From assembly GCA_964483665.1 (NCBI GenBank), contig CAZACP010000001.1, forward strand, positions 6,358 to 70,357: DNA of 64,000 bases, read 5' to 3'. The notes under the pieces were generated by a model. The model saw only the letters and a list, made by a program, of their open reading frames with translations, did no database searches and was not told the origin of the DNA. This document shows positions 30,677 to 46,996 of this stretch, piece after piece (position 1 is the first letter of the stretch; the number at the start of each line of letters is the position of its first letter). The position numbers were made by a program, and so were the translations under genes. This DNA comes from an uncultured Candidatus Saccharibacteria bacterium. Its GTDB lineage: Bacteria > Patescibacteriota > Doudnabacteria > UBA920.

Positions 30677-31354
30677 ATGATTAAATTCCAAAAAGTAACA
30701 AAAAATTATAAAAATTCCAAAGCTTTGGACGGCGTGGATTTAGACATACATCACGGAGAGTTTATTTCTTTGGTGGGCAGGAGCGGAGCTGGGAAATCTA
30801 CTTTGTTAAAACTAATAATTGGCGAGGAAGAAATAGACGGCGGGAGGATTTTAATTGACGACATTGACATCTCCCAAGTTCGAAAGTCTGACCTGCCTTT
30901 CTTAAGAAGAAAGATTGGCGTGGTGTTTCAGGACATGAGGCTTTTGCCCAGGCGGACGGCTTTTGAAAATATTGCTTTTGCAATGGAAGTCTGTGGGCAC
31001 CGGTATGAAAATATTGTTAAGGAAGTTCCCAAAATTTTAGAGCTGGTCGGCCTTCACCATAAGCGCAATAATTTTCCGGACGAAATGTCGGGCGGCGAAA
31101 AGCAGCGCGTGGCTATTGCGCGCGCGCTTTCACACCGGCCTGTGCTGCTTTTGGCCGATGAGCCGACGGGAAATTTAGACGAAGTTAACGCGGCAGAGGT
31201 TTTAGATTTGCTTTTAAAAATCAACAACCTTGGGACAACTGTAATTTTAGCGACCCACGCGGCGGATTTGGTAAACAAAATTAAAAAGCGCGTAATAACC
31301 ATAGAAAACGGAAAAATTACCATTGAGCAGGAGAAGGGAAAATATAAGTTATAA
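30677..31354 (+). CDS. ftsE: Cell-division ABC ATPase FtsE
   Basis: Walker A GRSGAGKST, signature LSGGEKQR, Walker B LLLADEPT. Confidence 0.95.
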   Translation: MIKFQKVTKNYKNSKALDGVDLDIHHGEFISLVGRSGAGKSTLLKLIIGEEEIDGGRILIDDIDISQVRKSDLPFLRRKIGVVFQDMRLLPRRTAFENIAFAMEVCGHRYENIVKEVPKILELVGLHHKRNNFPDEMSGGEKQRVAIARALSHRPVLLLADEPTGNLDEVNAAEVLDLLLKINNLGTTVILATHAADLVNKIKKRVITIENGKITIEQEKGKYKL

Positions 31355-31456
31355 TTAATTAAAAATAAATAAAATTAAGTAAAATTGATCATAATTTATG
31401 TGCAGAAATTTTTATTTAATTTTATTTAATTATGGTCAATCTTATTTAATTTCATA
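31355..31456. repeat. Conserved AT-rich intergenic element, copy 2 (matches 755..856)
   Basis: aaattaagtaaaatt...gtgcagaaatttttatttaattttatttaattatggtcaatcttatttaat. Confidence 0.7.
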
Positions 31457-32374
31457 ATGTTCGATTCCATTTCATTTTTTAGAATAGTTAAGACAGGTTT
31501 CGTCAATTTTTGGCGCAATTTGTCTTTGTCCGCGGCTGCAACCATGGTTATGAGCATAACTTTGGTAATTTTTGCTTCGCTGTTTTTAATTTTTGGCGTT
31601 ACTCAGTATAGTTTAAAAACTATTAAGAATACCGTAGACATAAGTGTGTATTTTAAGTCAGGTCTTGGTGAGGACAAAATAAACAGCATAAAAAGCGAAC
31701 TGGAAACTAATACTAAAATTCAAACAGTCCGCTATACTTCGGCCGCGGAAGCATTTAAGCAATTTAAAGAAAAGCACAATAATGATCCTTTAATTCAGCA
31801 ATCTTTAAACGAGCTGACAGAAAACCCGCTGCCTGCGACTTTAAATGTTAAGGCCTATAATTTAGAAGACTATCCGGAAATAGCAAACCAGCTGTCAGAT
31901 ACAAAATTCAAAGATTTTATAGACAAAATAAATTATGAAGATAACCGGGTCGTAATTGAGCGGTTAAACAAAATTTTAAAATTCGTTATTACTTTTGGTT
32001 TAGGTTTGATTGCGGTTTTTTCACTTATAGCTGTTTTAGTCATTTTTAACACAATTACGCTTACTATTTATAACCGCAAAGAAGAAGTGGAAATTATGCG
32101 GCTGGTGGGGGCGACTAACTGGTATATTCGCGGCCCTTTTTTGGTTGAGAGTTTTTTGTACGGTATTTTTGCCAGCATAATAACCGCAAGCTTGCTTTCC
32201 CCGGTATTTACCAAGTTTTTACCCAAAATTGCTTTTTACGTAAACCCGCAAATTTCGGTGTTTAACCAAAACATATTTAATTTTTGGTTTTTAATGCTTA
32301 TTTTATTGGCTTTAGGCTTGATTTTGTCGGTTGTTTCCACTCTGCTTGCTATAAGGCGGTATTTAAAAATATAG
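31457..32374 (+). CDS. ftsX: Cell-division permease-like FtsX
   Basis: Four-TM FtsX topology with a large extracellular loop; adjacent to ftsE. Confidence 0.85.
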   Translation: MFDSISFFRIVKTGFVNFWRNLSLSAAATMVMSITLVIFASLFLIFGVTQYSLKTIKNTVDISVYFKSGLGEDKINSIKSELETNTKIQTVRYTSAAEAFKQFKEKHNNDPLIQQSLNELTENPLPATLNVKAYNLEDYPEIANQLSDTKFKDFIDKINYEDNRVVIERLNKILKFVITFGLGLIAVFSLIAVLVIFNTITLTIYNRKEEVEIMRLVGATNWYIRGPFLVESFLYGIFASIITASLLSPVFTKFLPKIAFYVNPQISVFNQNIFNFWFLMLILLALGLILSVVSTLLAIRRYLKI

Positions 32375-33135: not shown

Positions 33136-33587
33136 AGCCTTCTCCCGGCGGGGAGAAGGTGCCCGAAGGGCGGATGAGGGTGTTATATGCGCAACATAAA
33201 CAAAAGCTTTGTTAATCTTTCTAGGAATTTAAGAAAAAACGAAACACCTTGGGAAATAAAGTTATGGCAAAGGTTAAGGGGAAGGAAATTTTTAGGATTT
33301 AAATTTAAAAAACAATTGGTTATAGGTAATTATATTTACGACTTTGGCTGCTTTGAAAAGAGACTATTAATTGAACTAGATGGCGGACAATATAGTGAAA
33401 ATGATATTAAAGATAAAGATCAAATTAAGGAAGATTTTGCAAAAAACCAGGGCTATAAAATTATCAGGTTTTGGAATAATGAACTAGACAACAATTTTGA
33501 AGGAGTTTTGGAGACAATTAGAAAAAACTTATTATAACCCTCATCCGGCCGTTGGCCACCTTCTCCCCTAAAGGGAGAAGGCAAACT
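33136..33587. mobile_element. Composite miniature element: DUF559 ORF bracketed by inverted copies of the ccctcatccg/ccttctccc hairpin MITE
   Basis: Left copy 33136..33183 (reverse orientation), right copy 33537..33587; the arms are conserved and the small hairpins differ but remain stems. Confidence 0.7.
33187..33537 (+). CDS. DUF559 (Vsr-like endonuclease-fold) domain protein
   Basis: WEIKLWQRLRGRKFLGFKFKKQ...IELDGGQY matches the DUF559 pattern. Confidence 0.7.
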   Translation: MRNINKSFVNLSRNLRKNETPWEIKLWQRLRGRKFLGFKFKKQLVIGNYIYDFGCFEKRLLIELDGGQYSENDIKDKDQIKEDFAKNQGYKIIRFWNNELDNNFEGVLETIRKNLL

Positions 33588-36962: not shown

Positions 36963-37793
36963 TTAGTCTTCAAATAAAGGCGGTTTGCCGGTTTTTTTGT
37001 TTTCAACTTTTTTAATTTCCAGGTCTTGTTTTTGTCTGCCGGGAATTTCTTTTTCATTGTTTTCCGGTTTTTTGTCTTTTATAAATTCACCTTTAACTCT
37101 GTCTTCTTCTTTGTTAGGGTTTTCTTTTTTCAGTTCTTCAGTTTTTATTTTTACTTCTGTTGGGCTGGCTGAAGAAGCGCCTGTAAAGTTAATTTCTATT
37201 TCCACACCGCCTTCATGTTTGCCTTGCAATTTGAGTAAAGTTTCGGAAACCGAAGAAGCGGCTTGAGTATGTCCTTTGGCTTCCAGTTGTGCTTTTACAT
37301 CTGTTAAAATTTCCACCGCGTTTTGTAAGTTATTTTTGGCTTCGTTTTCGTAATTCTGTCGATTTGAATAATTTTCTGTTGGTTTTTCTACAGTTTGTAT
37401 GCGAAGCCTGCTTAATTCTTTTAAGCGCTCTTCGGCAAAATGCGACCTAAGCTTTGCCTTTCGTTCAGTAGATGTGCTTAGGCTAACCTCAATTTTTTCT
37501 TTGACTTGTTTTACCGGGTAAAGCAAGTCCCCGGGCACAGAGGAATTTGAAGCAAAAGCTGTTCCACCTATAAAAAATATTCCAACCATACCGGCTAAGG
37601 CAAAGCGTATAAAATGCGTATGCTGGTTATACCAAAATACTCCCTCAGGTTTGGTACTTTCCTGTGGTTCTTTAATTTTTTCTAAAATAGCCTGCTTAAT
37701 TTGCTCTTTTCGTAAACTGGGTAAAGAACTTTTATCCGCTAATTTTTTTAGTTTGGCTATTTCAGTATTAAATTTTTTAGTGTCCCATAGCAT
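36963..37793 (-). CDS. Putative anti-sigma factor (single TM, extracytoplasmic coiled region)
   Basis: Overlaps the upstream ECF sigma stop by 17 nt; TM FALAGMVGIFFIGGTAFA. Confidence 0.5.
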   Translation of the reverse strand: MLWDTKKFNTEIAKLKKLADKSSLPSLRKEQIKQAILEKIKEPQESTKPEGVFWYNQHTHFIRFALAGMVGIFFIGGTAFASNSSVPGDLLYPVKQVKEKIEVSLSTSTERKAKLRSHFAEERLKELSRLRIQTVEKPTENYSNRQNYENEAKNNLQNAVEILTDVKAQLEAKGHTQAASSVSETLLKLQGKHEGGVEIEINFTGASSASPTEVKIKTEELKKENPNKEEDRVKGEFIKDKKPENNEKEIPGRQKQDLEIKKVENKKTGKPPLFED

Positions 37794-38331
37794 TGTTTTG
37801 CCTTAAAATTTTTCTTAGCTTGTTAAGCGCCCTATACTGCAGAACTCTTATGCTCACAGAATTTTTATTCAAAATTTTCGCGCAATCTTTTAATTCAATG
37901 TCTTGCACGAACCTTAGCTCAATAATTTCCCTATATTTTTCCGGCAGCAAAGCAACGGCTTTTTTTATTATTTCAATGTCTGAATATATAACGAGTTCTT
38001 CCGCCGGTGTTCTGCCTGAAGAAACGTTTAAATTTTCGTCTAATTCCAAATTTTCCGGGCGCCTGTAAATTTTGCGAAAGTGGTCATTAACCGTGTTGGC
38101 CGCAATAGTGTAGAGCCATGACTTAAACTTTAAACCCTTGTCAATTTTTAAGCGGGGGAGCGCCTTGTGGGCTTTTATAAAAACTTCTTGCAGTAGATCC
38201 TCAGCCTCTTGCTGGTTTTGAACTTTGGTTTTTATATACCGAAAGAGCAGTTCTGAGTAAGCGTCGTAAAGTTTTCCAAAGGCTTTGTCGTCGCCGTTTT
38301 GCGCATGTTTAATGAGTTCTGTTGTTTCCAT
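37777..38331 (-). CDS. ECF-type sigma-70 family factor
   Basis: Region 2 (LLQEVFIKAHKAL...FKSWLYTIAANTVNDHFRK) and region 4 HTH (DCAKILNKNSVSIRVLQYRALNKLR). Confidence 0.8.
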   Translation of the reverse strand: METTELIKHAQNGDDKAFGKLYDAYSELLFRYIKTKVQNQQEAEDLLQEVFIKAHKALPRLKIDKGLKFKSWLYTIAANTVNDHFRKIYRRPENLELDENLNVSSGRTPAEELVIYSDIEIIKKAVALLPEKYREIIELRFVQDIELKDCAKILNKNSVSIRVLQYRALNKLRKILRQNNAMGH

Positions 38332-38427
38332 GCGGTTATTATAACGCATTTTGGCACTTAATGTTACAAATCAAAATCCCGCCCTTTCGCCGGTTGGCGG
38401 ATTAAGGACGGGACAAATTTACCGAAA

Positions 38428-40278: not shown

Positions 40279-40692
40279 ATGCTTACTTACCAAGAATTTA
40301 AGGACTGGTGCGAAACCCACAAGCAAAAATTTGTAATAGCCGCCTGTTTTTTGCTGGTGTTTTTGGCAGGAATAGGGGTGGGCAGATATGAAAAAAACAA
40401 CCGGCAAAGCAACATAAATTTAAATAATTATAGCACAAATAATTCAAAAGAGCAAAAAATTAACCAACAAGCAGGGGAGCAGGCGGTTTTGGGAACAGAG
40501 GCGGTAAAGGCTACGACGACTTTGCCGACGGTTATAAACACAGATGCCTGTAAAATAAAAGGCAACATAGGTACAGGCGGGAAAATTTACCATATGCCGG
40601 GCGGCGCTTCCTACAAAATTGTTAAGCCGGAAATGTGTTTTAATACTGAAGCCGAAGCTGTGGCTGCAGGGTTTAGGAAGGCTGGGAGGTAG
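40279..40692 (+). CDS. Membrane-anchored small secreted protein with a C-terminal Cys-pair domain (CKIKGNI...GKIYHMPGG...CFNTEAEAVAAGFRKA)
   Basis: TM VIAACFLLVFLAGIGV; the C-terminal motif is common in small extracellular proteins of Gram-positives. Confidence 0.5.
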   Translation: MLTYQEFKDWCETHKQKFVIAACFLLVFLAGIGVGRYEKNNRQSNINLNNYSTNNSKEQKINQQAGEQAVLGTEAVKATTTLPTVINTDACKIKGNIGTGGKIYHMPGGASYKIVKPEMCFNTEAEAVAAGFRKAGR

Positions 40693-42381: not shown

Positions 42382-42410
42382 AAAACCGCCAATCTGTTAA
42401 AGGCGGTTTT
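42382..42410 (-). terminator. Terminator closing the minus-strand hydrolase operon
   Basis: aaaaccgcc...ggcggtttt. Confidence 0.7.
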
Positions 42411-42436
42411 ATTTGGTAATCAGTTAGTTATTTTTT

Positions 42437-42724
42437 TTATGGTTGTTTATTTTGATTTTGTAATAATATATCAATTTTATAATTTTGTTCTCTAATCTTA
42501 TCAATAAGTTGATTTTCTATGTCTGCCCTATCGTTTGACTCGGTAATGACGAACTGTATATAGGCAAAAGCTAAAGCAATAAAAACAGTAAAGAATGCAA
42601 CAATGACACCTGTCATCATTAGTTGCAAAAAATTTAGTTGACTATCAGGAACTTGAGTTCCAAAAGCACCAGAGGTAGAAGCTGTTGTTGTCGTGCTTTT
42701 TTTGCTTTTTTCATTCTCAGTCAT
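42437..42724 (-). CDS. Small single-TM protein (Thr/Ser-rich N-terminus), last gene of the hydrolase operon
   Basis: TM LMMTGVIVAFFTVFIALAFAYIQFV; 7-nt gap to the upstream gene. Confidence 0.45.
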   Translation of the reverse strand: MTENEKSKKSTTTTASTSGAFGTQVPDSQLNFLQLMMTGVIVAFFTVFIALAFAYIQFVITESNDRADIENQLIDKIREQNYKIDILLQNQNKQP

Positions 42725-42730
42725 TTTATT

Positions 42731-42973
42731 TTATTCAAAAATCTTAGCTGGAAAAGTTTTTAGTTCACCAGTAACTTTATTAGCAAATAGCTTTACAGGC
42801 AAACCAGAAGGCATCAGCTTAATGCCACTTGATGGTGTTCCATTAGGAACAGTTGGGGTTGCTTCTGTATACCAAAACCAACCAACAACTTCATCCCAGT
42901 CGCCATCAGTATTATTATTGTTTAATTCAAGTATCTTTTGCTGAATTTTTTCTTTGCTTAAACCGTAAGACAT
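42731..42973 (-). CDS. Small Trp-rich hypothetical protein
   Basis: 80-aa ORF in operon context. Confidence 0.35.
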   Translation of the reverse strand: MSYGLSKEKIQQKILELNNNNTDGDWDEVVGWFWYTEATPTVPNGTPSSGIKLMPSGLPVKLFANKVTGELKTFPAKIFE

Positions 42974-43132
42974 TTTTTACTATTATTTAATTAAATCTAC
43001 GTCAATTTTACCACAAAACCACAACCACGCAAAGAGCTAGAACTTGATATAAAAATTCTGGCTCTCCTACTAAAATTAAGCTGGGATTTATCAACCTATG
43101 TATCTTCAAAAATTTATTACCCTAACTAAACA

Positions 43133-43567
43133 TTAAGGTGTTTTGCTGCAAATAAAGCTTATACTGTTTTGCTGTCCTTTATTTAAATTCATGCTGGCGC
43201 TTGTTGAGCCGATTTCGATTGCTACATTGTTATTGGTTGGACTGACTGCATTTTTTATAAATCTTTCATTCGGACAAATTACACCCAATCGTTCTTTGGT
43301 GTTTGTAAAACCAACTAAAACATATTGGCTTATGTTATTTATGTCTAAGTCTACGGTCTTATCCCCCACTGTTGCTTTTGAGTAAATGTTTCCGTCAAAT
43401 TCGGTTAAGGAAATAAAGTAAAAATCTGAGGCATTAATTTCTGCCGGACTTAGCGAGGTTGAAGGCAGGGTATTTTTTGGTGCAGTTGTTAAAAAGTAAA
43501 ATATCCAGCCAAGTCCTATGACTATTAAACCAACCAGCGAGTATATAATTATTTTGTTTTGATTCAT
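43133..43567 (-). CDS. N-terminally anchored periplasmic-type protein with two Cys; candidate inhibitor/immunity partner of the adjacent hydrolases
   Basis: TM IIIYSLVGLIVIGLGWIFYFL; 7-nt gap after the hydrolase gene. Confidence 0.45.
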   Translation of the reverse strand: MNQNKIIIYSLVGLIVIGLGWIFYFLTTAPKNTLPSTSLSPAEINASDFYFISLTEFDGNIYSKATVGDKTVDLDINNISQYVLVGFTNTKERLGVICPNERFIKNAVSPTNNNVAIEIGSTSASMNLNKGQQNSISFICSKTP

Positions 43568-43573
43568 AAATTT

Positions 43574-44542
43574 TTATGTTCTATTATTGTTTAGCCAATT
43601 AGCTACTGCTTCAACGCCTGCAGCCCAATTCGGACAAAAGCTACGTCTTTGTCCGCTGTCTGTATTTCCATAATTTCCCGGATTGCAAGTATCTACCGCC
43701 ACACCATCAACCCCGTAATGACTGTCGACTTCCATAATTGCCATTAGCACCCTAATGTCGATATTTCTTGCCGCGTTAACAACCATATCACCAGTAAGTG
43801 GGCTTCTTATATTTCCGCCTTTAAAAATTTGAGCTGACCTGTCCATATATGACTTTACTTTTTCAGGGGTGCTTAAATCTTGTCTAAGTAAATTATTATA
43901 TCTGTCCTTAACTAGGTTTTCATGATTAGCATCGGTCGCATAACGGCGAATGTTGTAGCCGGCTAAAATAAATGGAGTACCGTTATTTCCGTTTGCTCCC
44001 GGCAAGCTTGAGCCTGGCACAAAACCAGGAATATAAGCAGGCTGCAGCGTCACACTCGGCGGCTGTATAGGCCTAAACTTAATCAGGTCTGGGTTTAAAG
44101 CTTTAAGTAGAATATAGCCGGCAAACAAAATAACTAAAGAAGTAACTGTGCTGGCTAATATGCTTTTAGCTTTGTCTACAGATTCCTGGTTGCCACCGGC
44201 TCCAATATACAAATATCCGGCAATCACTATAAAAAATACGCCGACTACAGCAGCTGTCACTATGGCAAACCTATACAGCCTGTTTATGCAGTTATATAAA
44301 TCACCGCTGGAAACGTTATTAGCGCCCGATGAATCCAAATGGCCTCCAAAAGCATTTGTAGCAAGATTAGTTTGGCTTTTCTCCGGATCCGAAGGAGCGC
44401 ATAAATATTGTTTTATTTGAGCTCCAACTCCGGCTGTAGTGTAATCTGCGCTGCCGGAAGTGGTGTTTTGGGCAAAGGCAAGGTTTAAAAAACCTATTGC
44501 CAAATAAAAACAAATCGAAATAAGTAAGAGTTTTTTAGGCAT
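43574..44542 (-). CDS. Fusion protein: TrbC/VirB2-like pilin-type N-terminal module (signal peptide, Cys pair, two TM helices) plus a lysozyme/lytic-transglycosylase-like C-terminal domain
   Basis: N-terminal 150 aa nearly identical to the paralog at 44574..45548; C-terminus LMAIMEVDSHYG...CNPGNYG resembles the SLT E-S...NP catalytic region. Confidence 0.6.
   Translation of the reverse strand: MPKKLLLISICFYLAIGFLNLAFAQNTTSGSADYTTAGVGAQIKQYLCAPSDPEKSQTNLATNAFGGHLDSSGANNVSSGDLYNCINRLYRFAIVTAAVVGVFFIVIAGYLYIGAGGNQESVDKAKSILASTVTSLVILFAGYILLKALNPDLIKFRPIQPPSVTLQPAYIPGFVPGSSLPGANGNNGTPFILAGYNIRRYATDANHENLVKDRYNNLLRQDLSTPEKVKSYMDRSAQIFKGGNIRSPLTGDMVVNAARNIDIRVLMAIMEVDSHYGVDGVAVDTCNPGNYGNTDSGQRRSFCPNWAAGVEAVANWLNNNRT
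44052..44310. repeat. Direct repeat, copy B (identical to 45070..45328); a second block 44385..44486 matches 45390..45491
   Basis: 259 bp identical by eye; encodes the shared TM-hairpin module. Confidence 0.85.
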
Positions 44543-44573
44543 TAAAATATTATAAAGATATTGGGATATTAAA

Positions 44574-45548
44574 TTATGGGCACTTGCCTTTTAAATCTAT
44601 GTGCAAATGAAAACTTTGGTCTCTGTCTCTGCCCGGGTTTATGCGATCCTCGGTAATACCAGCCTGTTTTGCTGCGTTATAAATAGCTTCACCAACCGGA
44701 CGGCCTTTGTGAGCTTTAATGTCATAAAAACCGCTTCCCAGCCTGTCGCTAAAGTCTACGGCGCAGCCAAGTTGGTGCTGAGAGCCTTTTGATTCTCTCC
44801 TTACAGTTGAACTAACCTGAGGCTTGCTTCCGCTTTGCGAAGCCACGGAACAAATTTGCAAAAGTTTTTGCCACATAGGCGCGGCCAAATTAGGCAGCTC
44901 GTTGCGCGGCCTGTCTTCGCTGGTTATAGTACAGCCCGCGGCTTCTAATTGCGCAATGCTTCCGCCGGCTGAACCGGTTATAGGGGTTGTAACCTGGGCT
45001 GAAGCTGGGATTTGGGCTGCCGGAGGTTCTCCGGTTTCTGCTTCCGGCGGCTCTGCCGTATCTAAAACTACACTCGGCGGCTGTATAGGCCTAAACTTAA
45101 TCAGGTCTGGGTTTAAAGCTTTAAGTAGAATATAGCCGGCAAACAAAATAACTAAAGAAGTAACTGTGCTGGCTAATATGCTTTTAGCTTTGTCTACAGA
45201 TTCCTGGTTGCCACCGGCTCCAATATACAAATATCCGGCAATCACTATAAAAAATACGCCGACTACAGCAGCTGTCACTATGGCAAACCTATACAGCCTG
45301 TTTATGCAGTTATATAAATCACCGCTGGCTTTGTTGTTATTAGCTGAATACTCGACCTGGCTGCCGGTAAAATTTGTTTGTTTTGGGTCGGGATCCGAAG
45401 GAGCACATAAATATTGTTTTATTTGAGCTCCAACTCCGGCTGTGGTGTAATCTGCGCTGCCGGAAGTAGTGTTTTGGGCAAAGGCAAGGTTAACCCAAGC
45501 CGTAAGGGTGTAAAAGAATATTGTTACAACAAGAATCTTTTTAAGCAT
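44574..45548 (-). CDS. Fusion protein: the same pilin-type N-terminal module plus a peptidase M15A (YcbK/MepK-like, LAS zinc peptidase) C-terminal domain
   Basis: SQHQLGCAVDFS ... DQSFHLHID matches the HxxGxAxD / HxH zinc-binding motifs of M15 peptidases. Confidence 0.65.
   Translation of the reverse strand: MLKKILVVTIFFYTLTAWVNLAFAQNTTSGSADYTTAGVGAQIKQYLCAPSDPDPKQTNFTGSQVEYSANNNKASGDLYNCINRLYRFAIVTAAVVGVFFIVIAGYLYIGAGGNQESVDKAKSILASTVTSLVILFAGYILLKALNPDLIKFRPIQPPSVVLDTAEPPEAETGEPPAAQIPASAQVTTPITGSAGGSIAQLEAAGCTITSEDRPRNELPNLAAPMWQKLLQICSVASQSGSKPQVSSTVRRESKGSQHQLGCAVDFSDRLGSGFYDIKAHKGRPVGEAIYNAAKQAGITEDRINPGRDRDQSFHLHIDLKGKCP
45070..45328. repeat. Direct repeat, copy A
   Basis: See 44052..44310. 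Confidence 0.85.
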
Positions 45549-45587
45549 TATTTATTGCGCTGAAAGATACGAAATTATAGCTAAAAA

Positions 45588-46955
45588 TTACTCTAAAAAG
45601 TTTAAAGGATTATAGGTATAGCCGTAAGGCAAACGATATGAGCCATAAATATTTTGGTATGCGCCGTCTTTAACCCCAAAACCTTCCTGGTCATATACGC
45701 CAAAGTGCAAGTGGTATCCCCTCTCTGGGCCGTAAAGTTTTTTGGTAGTATTGCCGGTATTGCCCTCGTAACCTATAAGGTCGCCTTGGCTGACTTTTTG
45801 TCCTGGGCTGACTTTAATTGTGCGCAAATGGGCGTAAACCGTAATTATTCCGGCAGAGCCGTTTTTAGTTGAAATATTGTGCTTTATCGCCACCCAGTTA
45901 CCATAAGAAGCGTCCGATTTGTCGGTATAAGCCACTTCCCCGCCGGCTGCCGCGTATATTGGCGAACCTGCCGGCGCGGCTATGTCTATGCCGTTGTGGA
46001 AGTTGTAGCCTAAAGCGCGAAACCCGGTATTGCCGTATTTTTGGGTTAATATGCCGTCCAGCGGCCAGGCCAATACGCCTTTTTTAGCCGCAATAGTTTT
46101 GTTTCCAAGTTTTGCTCTTACCTGTTCGTCTAGCTTGGAAATTTCCTCTTCTAACTTGTCGGCCTCGTTTTTGCTGACGGCTAAAAGTTTTTGGAAGTTG
46201 CTTTCAATGCCTCTGGTTTGGTTTAAAAGTTTTTGTTTGTCGTTTCGCTGCTGGGTAAGCGAATTTTGAACCTGTTCAAGCTCTAATTTTAATTCGTTTA
46301 AGCTGGCTAATTGAGCTTGCAAGTCTTTTTGTTGAGCTTCTAAGCGAGCCTTAAGCTGCTTAATTTTTTGCATGATTTGATAGACTTTGTCGTTATAGCT
46401 TTGGGTGTACTGAACCTGGTCTAAGAAACTCGAAAAACTGTCCGCTCCGACTGTGGTTTTTAAAAGATACTCGTTGTCAAACTCGTTTAACTGCCTTATA
46501 AGCTCTGAAAGTATTTTTTTGTTGTCGGAAATTTCTTTAATTTTTTGCTCTATAAGCTTTTGCAGAATTTCTATTTGGGTTTGGGTGTCGTCTATTTGGG
46601 TTTGTTTGGCTTCTATTTGCAGTTCCGTTTGCGCGATTTCTTTTTCAAAAATGCTAATTTCGCTTTTTAAAGTGTTGGATTTGTTGCGGGCATCAGAAAT
46701 TTGCTGGGTAAAACTTTTGATTTGCGAGTTTATTAACTCCAGCTTTTTTTGAGTTTCGCTTTTTTTGGTGTTTAACTGGTCAACCTCTGCCTTGCTTTGT
46801 TCCTGAGCGTTTAGCTCTGTATTTTCCGGAGTTTGGGCATAGGAAAAACTTGCTGCCAACAAAAAAATAATTGCCAAAAAAATTGATTTTGTATTTTTAT
46901 TTTTTTGAGTCAAAATCATTGAAGATATTATACCAGATTTATAAATAAAAAGCAT
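45588..46955 (-). CDS. M23/LytM peptidoglycan endopeptidase with a long N-terminal coiled coil (EnvC-like architecture, active-site residues present)
   Basis: HNGIDIAAPAGSPIYAAAGG...YAHL...GYHLHFGVY; about 250 aa of Q/E/K-rich heptad sequence. Confidence 0.85.
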   Translation of the reverse strand: MLFIYKSGIISSMILTQKNKNTKSIFLAIIFLLAASFSYAQTPENTELNAQEQSKAEVDQLNTKKSETQKKLELINSQIKSFTQQISDARNKSNTLKSEISIFEKEIAQTELQIEAKQTQIDDTQTQIEILQKLIEQKIKEISDNKKILSELIRQLNEFDNEYLLKTTVGADSFSSFLDQVQYTQSYNDKVYQIMQKIKQLKARLEAQQKDLQAQLASLNELKLELEQVQNSLTQQRNDKQKLLNQTRGIESNFQKLLAVSKNEADKLEEEISKLDEQVRAKLGNKTIAAKKGVLAWPLDGILTQKYGNTGFRALGYNFHNGIDIAAPAGSPIYAAAGGEVAYTDKSDASYGNWVAIKHNISTKNGSAGIITVYAHLRTIKVSPGQKVSQGDLIGYEGNTGNTTKKLYGPERGYHLHFGVYDQEGFGVKDGAYQNIYGSYRLPYGYTYNPLNFLE

Positions 46956-46996
46956 CTTTTTTCAAAAATGCTTTTTAAATAATTTGTTTTATTTTC

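Follow-up and report, generated by a model that had tools for sequence, protein, structure and literature searches.

A conserved Doudnabacteria locus in which a VirB2-like pilin module carries exchangeable, predicted murein-hydrolase heads beside an EnvC-like M23 peptidase

Introduction

Conjugation systems have hydrolases, such as PrgK, TraG, CwlT and VirB1, that open gaps in the cell wall, and pilins of the VirB2 type have both termini exposed outside the cell. In the Patescibacteria, the type IV secretion system (T4SS) and its pilin arrays are essential for the epibiotic growth of S. epibionticum (PMC10633639), and a 2024 perspective describes the T4SS/pilin role as "completely unknown" (PMC11665869). 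A survey that counts PF18895 proteins as VirB2 reports that most genomes with VirB2-like pilins are without VirB1, so that pilus biogenesis seems independent of a VirB1 homologue, and it proposes that other glycosidases may fill the VirB1 role in Patescibacteria (PMC12102498). The same work describes the T4SS hydrolases of monoderm bacteria as membrane-anchored proteins that combine glycosidase and peptidase activities (PMC12102498). Patescibacterial ABC-transporter operons, in turn, hold coiled-coil M23 or papain-like peptidases (PMC12419801). Here we describe a locus in which these kinds of parts occur together. It lies at positions 42437-46955, on the minus strand, of a 64,000-nt stretch of DNA (the window) from an uncultured Candidatus Saccharibacteria bacterium placed by GTDB in the Doudnabacteria (assembly GCA_964483665.1, contig CAZACP010000001.1, positions 6,358 to 70,357), and it encodes a coiled-coil M23 peptidase followed by two proteins in which a VirB2-like pilin module is fused to a predicted murein hydrolase.

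A sequence-only reading of the window had presented this cluster as a six-gene operon for peptidoglycan demolition, and had suggested that it might be a secretion module for breaching the wall of a host cell or remodelling the cell's own. We find that four of the six genes form a unit conserved across related species, that the catalytic heads carried by the pilin module differ from species to species, and that some heads come with a small anchored partner protein of their own.

Results

Pilin-module fusions. Two adjacent minus-strand genes encode proteins with the same N-terminal module. Fusion 1 (44574..45548, 324 aa) has a hairpin at residues ~78-147, a NPDLIKFRPIQPPS junction, a Pro/Ala-rich linker and a LAS/M15-type head at ~196-324. 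Fusion 2 (43574..44542, 322 aa) has the same N-module, a Gly/Pro linker and a GH73-like head at ~190-322. Both proteins start with a signal peptide and have two hydrophobic helices. The order within the module is a signal peptide (…NLAFA/QN, the slash marking its end), a segment of ~55 residues with two conserved Cys, a helix, the loop GAGGNQESVDKAKS, a second helix and NPDLIKFRPIQPPS. Hydrophobic segments are found at 3-25, 88-118 and 127-151, and AlphaFold places the helices of the module at 77-114 and 119-149 with predicted local distance difference test (pLDDT) values of 72-76. Pfam family PF18895 (T4SS_pilin) matches fusion 1 with 26.8 bits and fusion 2 with 26.6 bits, which is marginal given a gathering cutoff of 26.6. 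The family is recognized more clearly in relatives, where the syntenic slot has 60 fusion proteins and PF18895 matches 54 of them at E <= 1e-3 (best 1.6e-8), and three relatives also have weak matches to TrbC/VirB2 (PF04956). The proposal that the anchor is of the pilin type is thus borne out: it is a VirB2-like module of family PF18895, not a generic lipoprotein anchor. Because the signal peptide is cleavable, and from the positive-inside rule, we expect the basic loop of the hairpin to be inside and its two ends outside. With this topology, the catalytic head would be carried at the membrane's outer face by a Pro/Gly-rich linker of 35-45 residues.

When 1.84 billion representative proteins are scanned in full with the module (HMMER), 6,481 match at E <= 1e-3, of which 344 reach E <= 1e-10. 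Among the 150 best matches, most are 280-800 residues long and have the module at the N-terminus, which indicates that fusion is the rule among close relatives. Of the short matches that look like stand-alone pilins, the three closest are uninformative about a T4SS: P0130 and P0226 sit at the ends of contigs of <2 kb and are probably truncated fusions, and P0196 has a DsbA-like gene as its neighbour on a contig of 4 kb. In locus L053 (171-2561) a single chain of 796 aa, P0213, consists of the pilin module, Peptidase_M23 and Peptidase_M15, and so supports a functional link between parts that are separate in the window. A different arrangement is seen in L051 (9925-16481), from another candidate phyla radiation (CPR) lineage, where an 820-aa protein (P0161) has eight tandem pilin hairpins; after it come a pilin of 155 aa, a pilin-PKD fusion and a PKD-repeat protein of 718 aa. 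There, ftsX lies 1.4 kb upstream, and no VirB4 is found within 10 kb of the pilin array.

Conservation of the locus. We compared the window with 46 related loci, taking one genome per species. Those loci that reach far enough show the same order of WecG/NUDIX, gltX, the coiled-coil M23 gene and one to three pilin-module fusions. The M23 ortholog is directly upstream of the pilin fusions in all 46, most of the 46 have the convergent aminotransferase gene, and ftsX follows 5-10 kb further on wherever the fetched flank extends that far. M23 and the pilin fusions make up the conserved core, joined, where the head is GH73-like, by the gene for a 144-aa protein described below. In the window, the surroundings also include gatAB, mreBCD, PBP2, frr, proS, nusG, def, fmt, mltG and ftsEX. 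The window belongs to a metagenome contig of 124.6 kb (ERZ3756521 NODE_22). With a PF18895 anchor and synteny this strong, at the same housekeeping locus throughout, the locus is neither built on a generic anchor nor scattered among relatives. Searched with a hidden Markov model of the pilin module, the window and the flanks of the 46 loci yield no additional copies.

Exchange of heads on a homogenized carrier. At the syntenic slot, the C-terminal head differs between species. We classified the heads of the 60 proteins in two ways, by Pfam matches at E <= 1e-3 and by BLAST clusters of the C-terminal parts. Pfam recognizes SLT in 10/60, SLT_3 in 3/60, C39-like in 3/60, GH73 in 2/60, Amidase_2 and M15_4 in 1/60 each, and GDSL in 1-2/60. 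The BLAST clusters comprise an SLT-related group (28 genes), a mixed SLT_3 / C39-like / GDSL group (10), a LAS/M15 group (9), a GH73-like group (8), two unlabelled pairs (2 + 2) and a single M15_4 gene. The N-module behaves differently: its identity has a median of 84% within genomes (up to 100%) and 51% between genomes. In the window, 240 nt of the fusion 1 gene (copy A, 45081..45320, minus strand) are 100% identical to 240 nt of the GH73-like fusion gene (copy B, 44063..44302, minus strand). The two copies are the direct repeat family D1/D2, and they cover the pilin hairpin and the junction. Right after the PIQPPSV codons, identity between the copies drops to about 48% in 60-nt windows, and the motif at this junction, NPDLIxFxxIQPPS, is widely conserved. 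Taken together, the within- and between-genome identities, the 240-nt tract and the junction indicate recurrent gene conversion of the carrier combined with cassette replacement of the head, a history we read from the sequences.

Catalytic heads in the window. The sequence-only reading had assigned the head of fusion 1 to the M15A peptidases. The LAS/M15-type zinc motif is there, with H258, A263, D265 and H316 invariant in 11 sequences and S256 nearly so, and the family shares SxHxxGxAxD plus a final HxH. The assignment to subfamily A goes too far: there is no reason to prefer A to B, C or D, and PF13539 gives the window protein only 14.1 bits against a cutoff of 25 (E 0.07). The outlier P0111 is the only relative with a strong M15 Pfam match. 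Against the PDB, the family profile finds the hedgehog N-domain and the L-Ala-D-Glu peptidase of phage T5, aligned on the zinc motif, at E 0.4-0.9. From its conserved motif, we predict that this head is a divergent LAS/M15-type zinc peptidase.

For fusion 2, what had been called a lysozyme-like domain can be sharpened to a GH73-like fold. The head of the window protein has no direct Pfam match, and among 14 aligned orthologs 10 match GH73 (PF01832) at E <= 0.05, the best at 5e-8. Its AlphaFold model has pLDDT 80-93 over residues 190-322, and the best Foldseek match of the head is the GH73 enzyme LytB, with probability 0.97. A profile search aligns the family motif ALMQvDSSLG with AIMQTESSF of MltC; this puts Asp273 at the position of the catalytic Glu, as in most of the orthologs, with Glu found only in P0004. 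Asp273 may still serve as the acid, and the adjacent Ser274 is invariant. Searches of the PDB with the single sequences of both heads gave nothing meaningful; it was the profiles and the structure model that resolved them. Counting M23, three distinct murein-cleaving chemistries are predicted within one tight unit, as had been proposed.

The M23 peptidase. The gene upstream of the fusions (45588..46955, minus strand) encodes a coiled-coil M23 (LytM) metalloendopeptidase of 455 aa with a signal peptide and a probable start at 46919. PF01551 (Peptidase_M23) matches residues 319-423 with 93 bits (cutoff 28.7, E 1.3e-26). The zinc and catalytic residues are complete (H320-N-G-I-D324, H376 and H415-L-H417), which agrees with the earlier description of an EnvC-like protein with intact HxxxD and HxH motifs. 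The domain is preceded by ~240 coiled-coil residues, and residues 50-285 match only coiled-coil families. The best NCBIfam matches are the catalytic domains of DipM, MepM and ShyC, and the EnvC model itself (NCBIfam NF008644) gives 21 bits against a cutoff of 270. Since its LytM residues are complete, M23 is predicted to be an enzyme and not an amidase activator. The ftsE and ftsX genes are at 30677-32374, where ftsX includes an FtsX_ECD domain, and so at 30.7 kb and not adjoining the cluster, in accordance with the sequence-only reading.

Anchored partner proteins. Directly downstream of fusion 2 is the gene for a 144-aa membrane-anchored β-sandwich protein (43133..43567, minus strand) with one N-terminal transmembrane (TM) segment. 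Its model has nine strands, with pLDDT about 90. The two Cys that had been pointed out in this protein, C98 and C140, are invariant in relatives. Homologs are found directly downstream of every pilin-GH73-like gene, in 8/8 species including L010, where BLAST had missed the gene, and in none of the loci without a GH73-like head. The family evolves fast, its members being 22-31% identical where gltX is ~64-69% identical. This pairing makes the 144-aa protein a candidate inhibitor or partner cognate to the GH73-like head. The earlier guess of an inhibitor or immunity protein, which had named both the M15 and the lysozyme-like domains as possible targets, thereby gains support for the lysozyme-like head only, as the M15 head is not tracked. 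The 144-aa fold has no match to a known inhibitor or immunity fold.

Other heads have anchored partners of other families. A second family (A8), of 150-171 aa, has an invariant "AC…FCP" Cys pair in an 'ACKL…FCP' motif and comes after all 6/6 pilin-SLT_3 fusions (L033 10942-11457, L036 11024-11539, L040 10885-11337, L044 8818-9276, L045 9339-9812 and L048 8169-8642). In 2/2 genomes (L046 and L047), a divergent SLT fusion is followed by a member of a third family, of 174 aa. We considered whether the second family and the 144-aa family share an ancestor and rejected this: hhalign aligns only nine N-terminal residues of the two, and they are therefore unrelated. The SLT-related (28), LAS/M15 (9) and C39-like heads are without such a neighbour. 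Some loci also have genes for membrane-anchored DsbA/thioredoxin-like proteins with a CPFC motif (L033 11463-12191, L036 11548-12276, L044 9280-9996 and L055 2307-3134), which adjoin the pilin fusions or their small partners. Their position fits the conserved Cys pairs of the pilin module and of the partner proteins.

Boundaries and transcription signals. All six minus-strand ORFs (open reading frames) of the sequence-only reading are present with exactly the coordinates it gave. The gaps between them measure 39, 31, 6, 159 and 6 nt; the values given before (40, 32, 7, 160 and 7 bp) are each 1 too large. The notion of a six-gene unit needs a larger revision, as the conserved part comprises four genes: M23, the two pilin fusions and the 144-aa gene. 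The remaining two, an 80-aa ORF (42731..42973, minus strand) that lies behind the 159-nt gap and a 95-aa ORF (42437..42724, minus strand) with a single TM segment, are species-specific and outside the conserved module. They are found only in L001/L002, which are the same organism; none of the 46 related loci has a homolog of either, not even that of a relative at 83-87% identity. Their GC content at third codon positions (GC3) is 0.235 for the 80-aa ORF and 0.219 for the 95-aa ORF, against 0.33-0.44 in the neighbours. The 80-aa ORF has no family match in profile searches and no hydrophobic segment, so that the cluster does not have the three small membrane proteins once ascribed to it. Without homologs in relatives, with low GC3, and with no TM segment in the 80-aa protein, we exclude these two ORFs from the module, and they have the appearance of a recent insertion confined to this species.

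At the upstream end, the boundary had been placed beyond gltX. Instead, a terminator-like hairpin with a U-run (46940..46985, minus strand) sits between gltX and M23, directly after the gltX stop. It has a 14-bp stem and a folding energy of -14.2 kcal/mol (z = -4.9), and 0/200 shuffles fold equally well. The annotated ATG of M23 (46955) falls within the 3' arm of this hairpin. A second in-frame ATG at 46919 begins MILTQKNKNTKSIFLAIIFLLAASFSYA/Q (the slash again marking the end of the signal peptide), which is a good signal peptide, and 8 nt upstream of it is an extended -10 element, TGGTATAAT (46927..46935, minus strand), to which we assign the role of a putative promoter. Given the hairpin over the first ATG, the TGGTATAAT element and the second ATG, the true start of M23 is probably 46919 on a near-leaderless mRNA, and the cluster would be its own transcription unit, from the terminator and promoter after gltX to the terminator before the aminotransferase. 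The latter terminator, which had been reported near 42382, is confirmed as an intrinsic-terminator hairpin (42382..42411, minus strand), AAAACCGCC-N11-GGCGGUUUU, with -14.2 kcal/mol and z = -4.0. It lies between the convergent genes for the 95-aa protein and the class-V aminotransferase, and could act in both directions.

T4SS genes and the literature. The window and the 10 kb on each side of it (~84 kb in total) are free of T4SS genes, and so are the syntenic loci L003 and L004. The idea of a secretion module that breaches host walls gains no support, and the locus is embedded in housekeeping genes. A routine autolysin role alongside FtsEX and the EnvC-like M23 seems slightly more likely than attack on a host. 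One genome of the Doudnabacteria class is listed as VirB4-positive (PMC12102498 Table S1), which makes a T4SS elsewhere in the genome possible. In the full-text literature we find no description of pilin-hydrolase fusions or of this locus, and the sequence-only reading likewise knew of none for the architecture; as most subscription journals are outside the coverage, this is weak evidence.

Other genes in the window. Three further features of the neighbourhood were noted. A DUF559/Vsr-like endonuclease gene (33187-33537) and a pair of genes for an extracytoplasmic function (ECF) sigma factor and a DUF5667 protein (36963-38349) are missing from the otherwise syntenic L003 and L004, and are likely lineage-specific insertions. 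A small TM-anchored protein with a Pfam ArfC match (PF27542) is encoded at 40279-40692, beside the aminotransferase gene, in L001-L004.

Discussion

The reading that we tentatively favour is that of a lineage-wide murein-hydrolase locus for remodelling the cell's own wall, in which the fusions work with M23 and possibly with FtsEX. We come to it because the housekeeping locus is fixed, M23 is conserved, and there are no secretion genes nearby. M23 would be an exported coiled-coil endopeptidase, built like EnvC and catalytically intact. The two further hydrolases, of the LAS/M15 type and GH73-like, would be exported by their Sec signal peptides and held outside by the VirB2-like hairpin. The hairpin would then be the conserved carrier and the heads exchangeable cassettes: recombination at NPDLIxFxxIQPPS would swap heads between species, and gene conversion would keep the carriers within a genome nearly identical. 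The tethered enzymes and M23 may together cut the cell's own wall from the membrane side, with FtsEX, encoded 13 kb away, probably controlling M23 through the coiled coil. Such cutting could serve growth, the separation of daughter cells, or openings for surface machines. The 144-aa protein would either restrain or position the glycosidase.

Several observations weigh against this reading. At the same slot, a peptidase head is the sole kind in some species and a glycosidase head in others. Autolysins with a housekeeping role normally keep their catalytic type from one ortholog to the next, and such turnover is more typical of genes for conflict or host interaction. The head-specific small anchored partners resemble immunity proteins. 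The ftsEX genes are not adjacent, and with Asp273 in place of the catalytic Glu the activity of the GH73-like head is uncertain. Finally, the carrier family is named for T4SS pilins, and Saccharibacteria need arrays of such pilins to grow on the host (PMC10633639, PMC12102498).

A weapon against a host or competitor is a serious possibility, if a somewhat less probable one. The VirB2-like module would here be a true pilin or a domain for recognition by, and carriage on, the Patescibacteria T4SS, the heads would be exposed to the peptidoglycan of the host, and the small proteins would provide immunity for the producer's own wall, much as in a polymorphic effector-immunity system; the fusions may be built into a pilus or contact structure or be delivered along it, and the envelope of the host would be opened for attachment or for nutrient uptake. 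A conserved N-module with swapped heads, a sharp recombination boundary and a junction motif speak for such a system. So do three unrelated anchored families that are each tied to one lysozyme-like head (GH73-like 8/8, SLT_3 6/6, divergent SLT 2/2), and the very fast divergence of the 144-aa family. The termini of VirB2-type pilins are outside, so that a C-terminal head would be displayed. The T4SS/pilin arrays of S. epibionticum, essential and with a role still unexplained (PMC10633639, PMC11665869), add to the case, as does the VirB4-positive genome within the Doudnabacteria class (PMC12102498 Table S1). This explanation has to contend with the lack of any T4SS gene in the window, in the 10 kb beyond either end, and in L003 and L004. 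It also has to contend with the position of the locus, which is a fixed housekeeping one throughout the genomes, with a well-conserved M23 always at its head. The commonest heads (SLT-related with 28 genes, LAS/M15 with 9, and C39-like) have no partner gene, and the 144-aa fold is unlike any known lysozyme inhibitor or immunity protein. Also, the carriers are homogenized within a genome, whereas the pilins of published T4SS arrays are ~25% identical.

That the fusions are assembly helpers in the manner of VirB1 seems to us improbable. As such, the hydrolases would open gaps in the cell's own wall for a T4SS, for type IV pili or for a competence apparatus, and the hairpin would target the enzymes there. 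The monoderm T4SS hydrolases, membrane-anchored and with glycosidase and peptidase combined, offer a precedent, and most Patescibacteria with VirB2-like pilins do not have a recognizable VirB1 (PMC12102498); SLT, the classic VirB1 domain, is the commonest head at the slot. None of the 46 loci, however, has a T4SS or type IV pilus assembly gene alongside, head turnover and head-specific partners are unexpected for an assembly factor, and the constant link to an EnvC-like M23 points to division or growth.

An accidental neighbourhood of wall genes, or a decaying prophage lysis remnant (a holin-like hairpin with an endolysin), is scarcely credible even though phage proteins often have M23 domains and the genes for the 80- and 95-aa proteins resemble a recent insertion, as the order and tight spacing are kept in 46 species-level genomes with housekeeping flanks, the catalytic motifs are invariant, and neither the fusions nor the 144-aa protein has a PHROG match; a prophage lysis cassette or holin-endolysin fusion is ruled out by the same housekeeping synteny in the 46 genomes and by the absence of PHROG matches for the fusions and small proteins.

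Whether the cutters act on the own wall, as we prefer, or on another's, the same pilin module is joined covalently to predicted murein hydrolases of at least six catalytic types throughout an entire CPR class, a defined junction marks where the heads are exchanged, and some heads bring their own anchored partner protein. The components are all of known kinds. What is new is a VirB2-like hairpin as the carrier of swapped murein hydrolases, the class-wide link to a predicted active EnvC-like M23, and the head-specific partners. The partners are candidates for a new family of lysozyme-type inhibitors, and gltX followed by M23 and pilin fusions is a simple marker for comparative work. The alternatives of wall cutters borne on pilins and of a new membrane tether for autolysins can be told apart by experiment, and the role of the CPR "T4SS pilins" becomes testable. 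Should the locus be housekeeping only, it would show how wall-bearing, monoderm, ultrasmall bacteria retain their autolysins against diffusion, and that PF18895 matches are not automatically T4SS pili. Should the heads be displayed outward, it would be a new polymorphic, pilin-borne effector system and give a concrete function to the T4SS/pilin arrays of episymbiotic CPR bacteria. A bolder generalization strikes us as somewhat unlikely: that the VirB2-like pilins of Patescibacteria are more than structural and, in the Doudnabacteria and, judged by the 6,481 profile matches, probably beyond them, are carriers which display interchangeable wall-degrading enzymes on a T4SS-type filament or contact zone to cut the peptidoglycan of the host, with head-specific anchored immunity proteins shielding the producer.

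Comparison with known systems

Close known counterparts of the module are the VirB2/TrbC conjugative pilins and the PF18895 arrays of Patescibacteria (Wang 2023, PMC10633639; Quinonero-Coronel 2025, PMC12102498), which have the same signal peptide, two-helix hairpin and short basic loop, and which also occur as tandem paralogous copies. Our locus differs from them in that the module is fused to enzymatic heads of 150-400 residues, has an extra N-terminal segment of ~55 residues with two conserved Cys, and is found with no virB4 near the genes. The paralogs within a genome are 84% identical (median) here and ~25% in the arrays.

VirB1 and the monoderm T4SS hydrolases (PrgK, TraG of pIP501, CwlT and TcpG) are likewise membrane-anchored, bring together glycosidase and peptidase chemistries and often have SLT heads. 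They have a single N-terminal TM or lipid anchor, unite both activities in a single chain and have their genes within T4SS clusters, whereas here the anchor is a pilin-like hairpin, each chain has one head, and the locus is a housekeeping one.

In their modular design, the fusions are like the effector-immunity pairs of the type VI secretion system (Tae/Tai and Tge/Tgi) and of the Xanthomonas/Stenotrophomonas T4SS (X-Tfe/X-Tfi), and like polymorphic toxins, all of which have a conserved N-terminal part, variable C-terminal wall-degrading domains and a sharp junction. As in those pairs, some heads have an adjacent, head-specific, small extracytoplasmic partner protein. Unlike in those pairs, no secretion apparatus is linked to the genes, the N-module is a hairpin integral to the membrane, a partner gene is missing for over half of the heads, and the locus is fixed in the core genome.

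The catalytic folds themselves are those of autolysins and phage endolysins, such as the GH73 enzymes LytB, Atl and AcmA and the M15 enzymes Ply500 and the T5 endolysin. These modular enzymes also shuffle varied catalytic modules against a conserved targeting module. Their targeting module is a wall-binding repeat (LysM, SH3b or choline-binding) where ours is a membrane hairpin, and the GH73-like head departs from the GH73 autolysins in having Asp for the catalytic Glu.

For M23, the comparison is with EnvC-FtsEX of E. coli, PcsB, CwlO and RipC-FtsEX; like them, it begins with a signal peptide, continues with a long coiled coil and ends in a hydrolase or LytM domain. The ftsE and ftsX genes are in the same region of the genome (30.7-32.4 kb), and division-type wall cleavage is plausible. 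In EnvC the LytM site is degenerate, whereas M23 here keeps all zinc and catalytic residues; and unlike EnvC, it is not beside ftsEX and is always trailed by pilin-anchored hydrolases.

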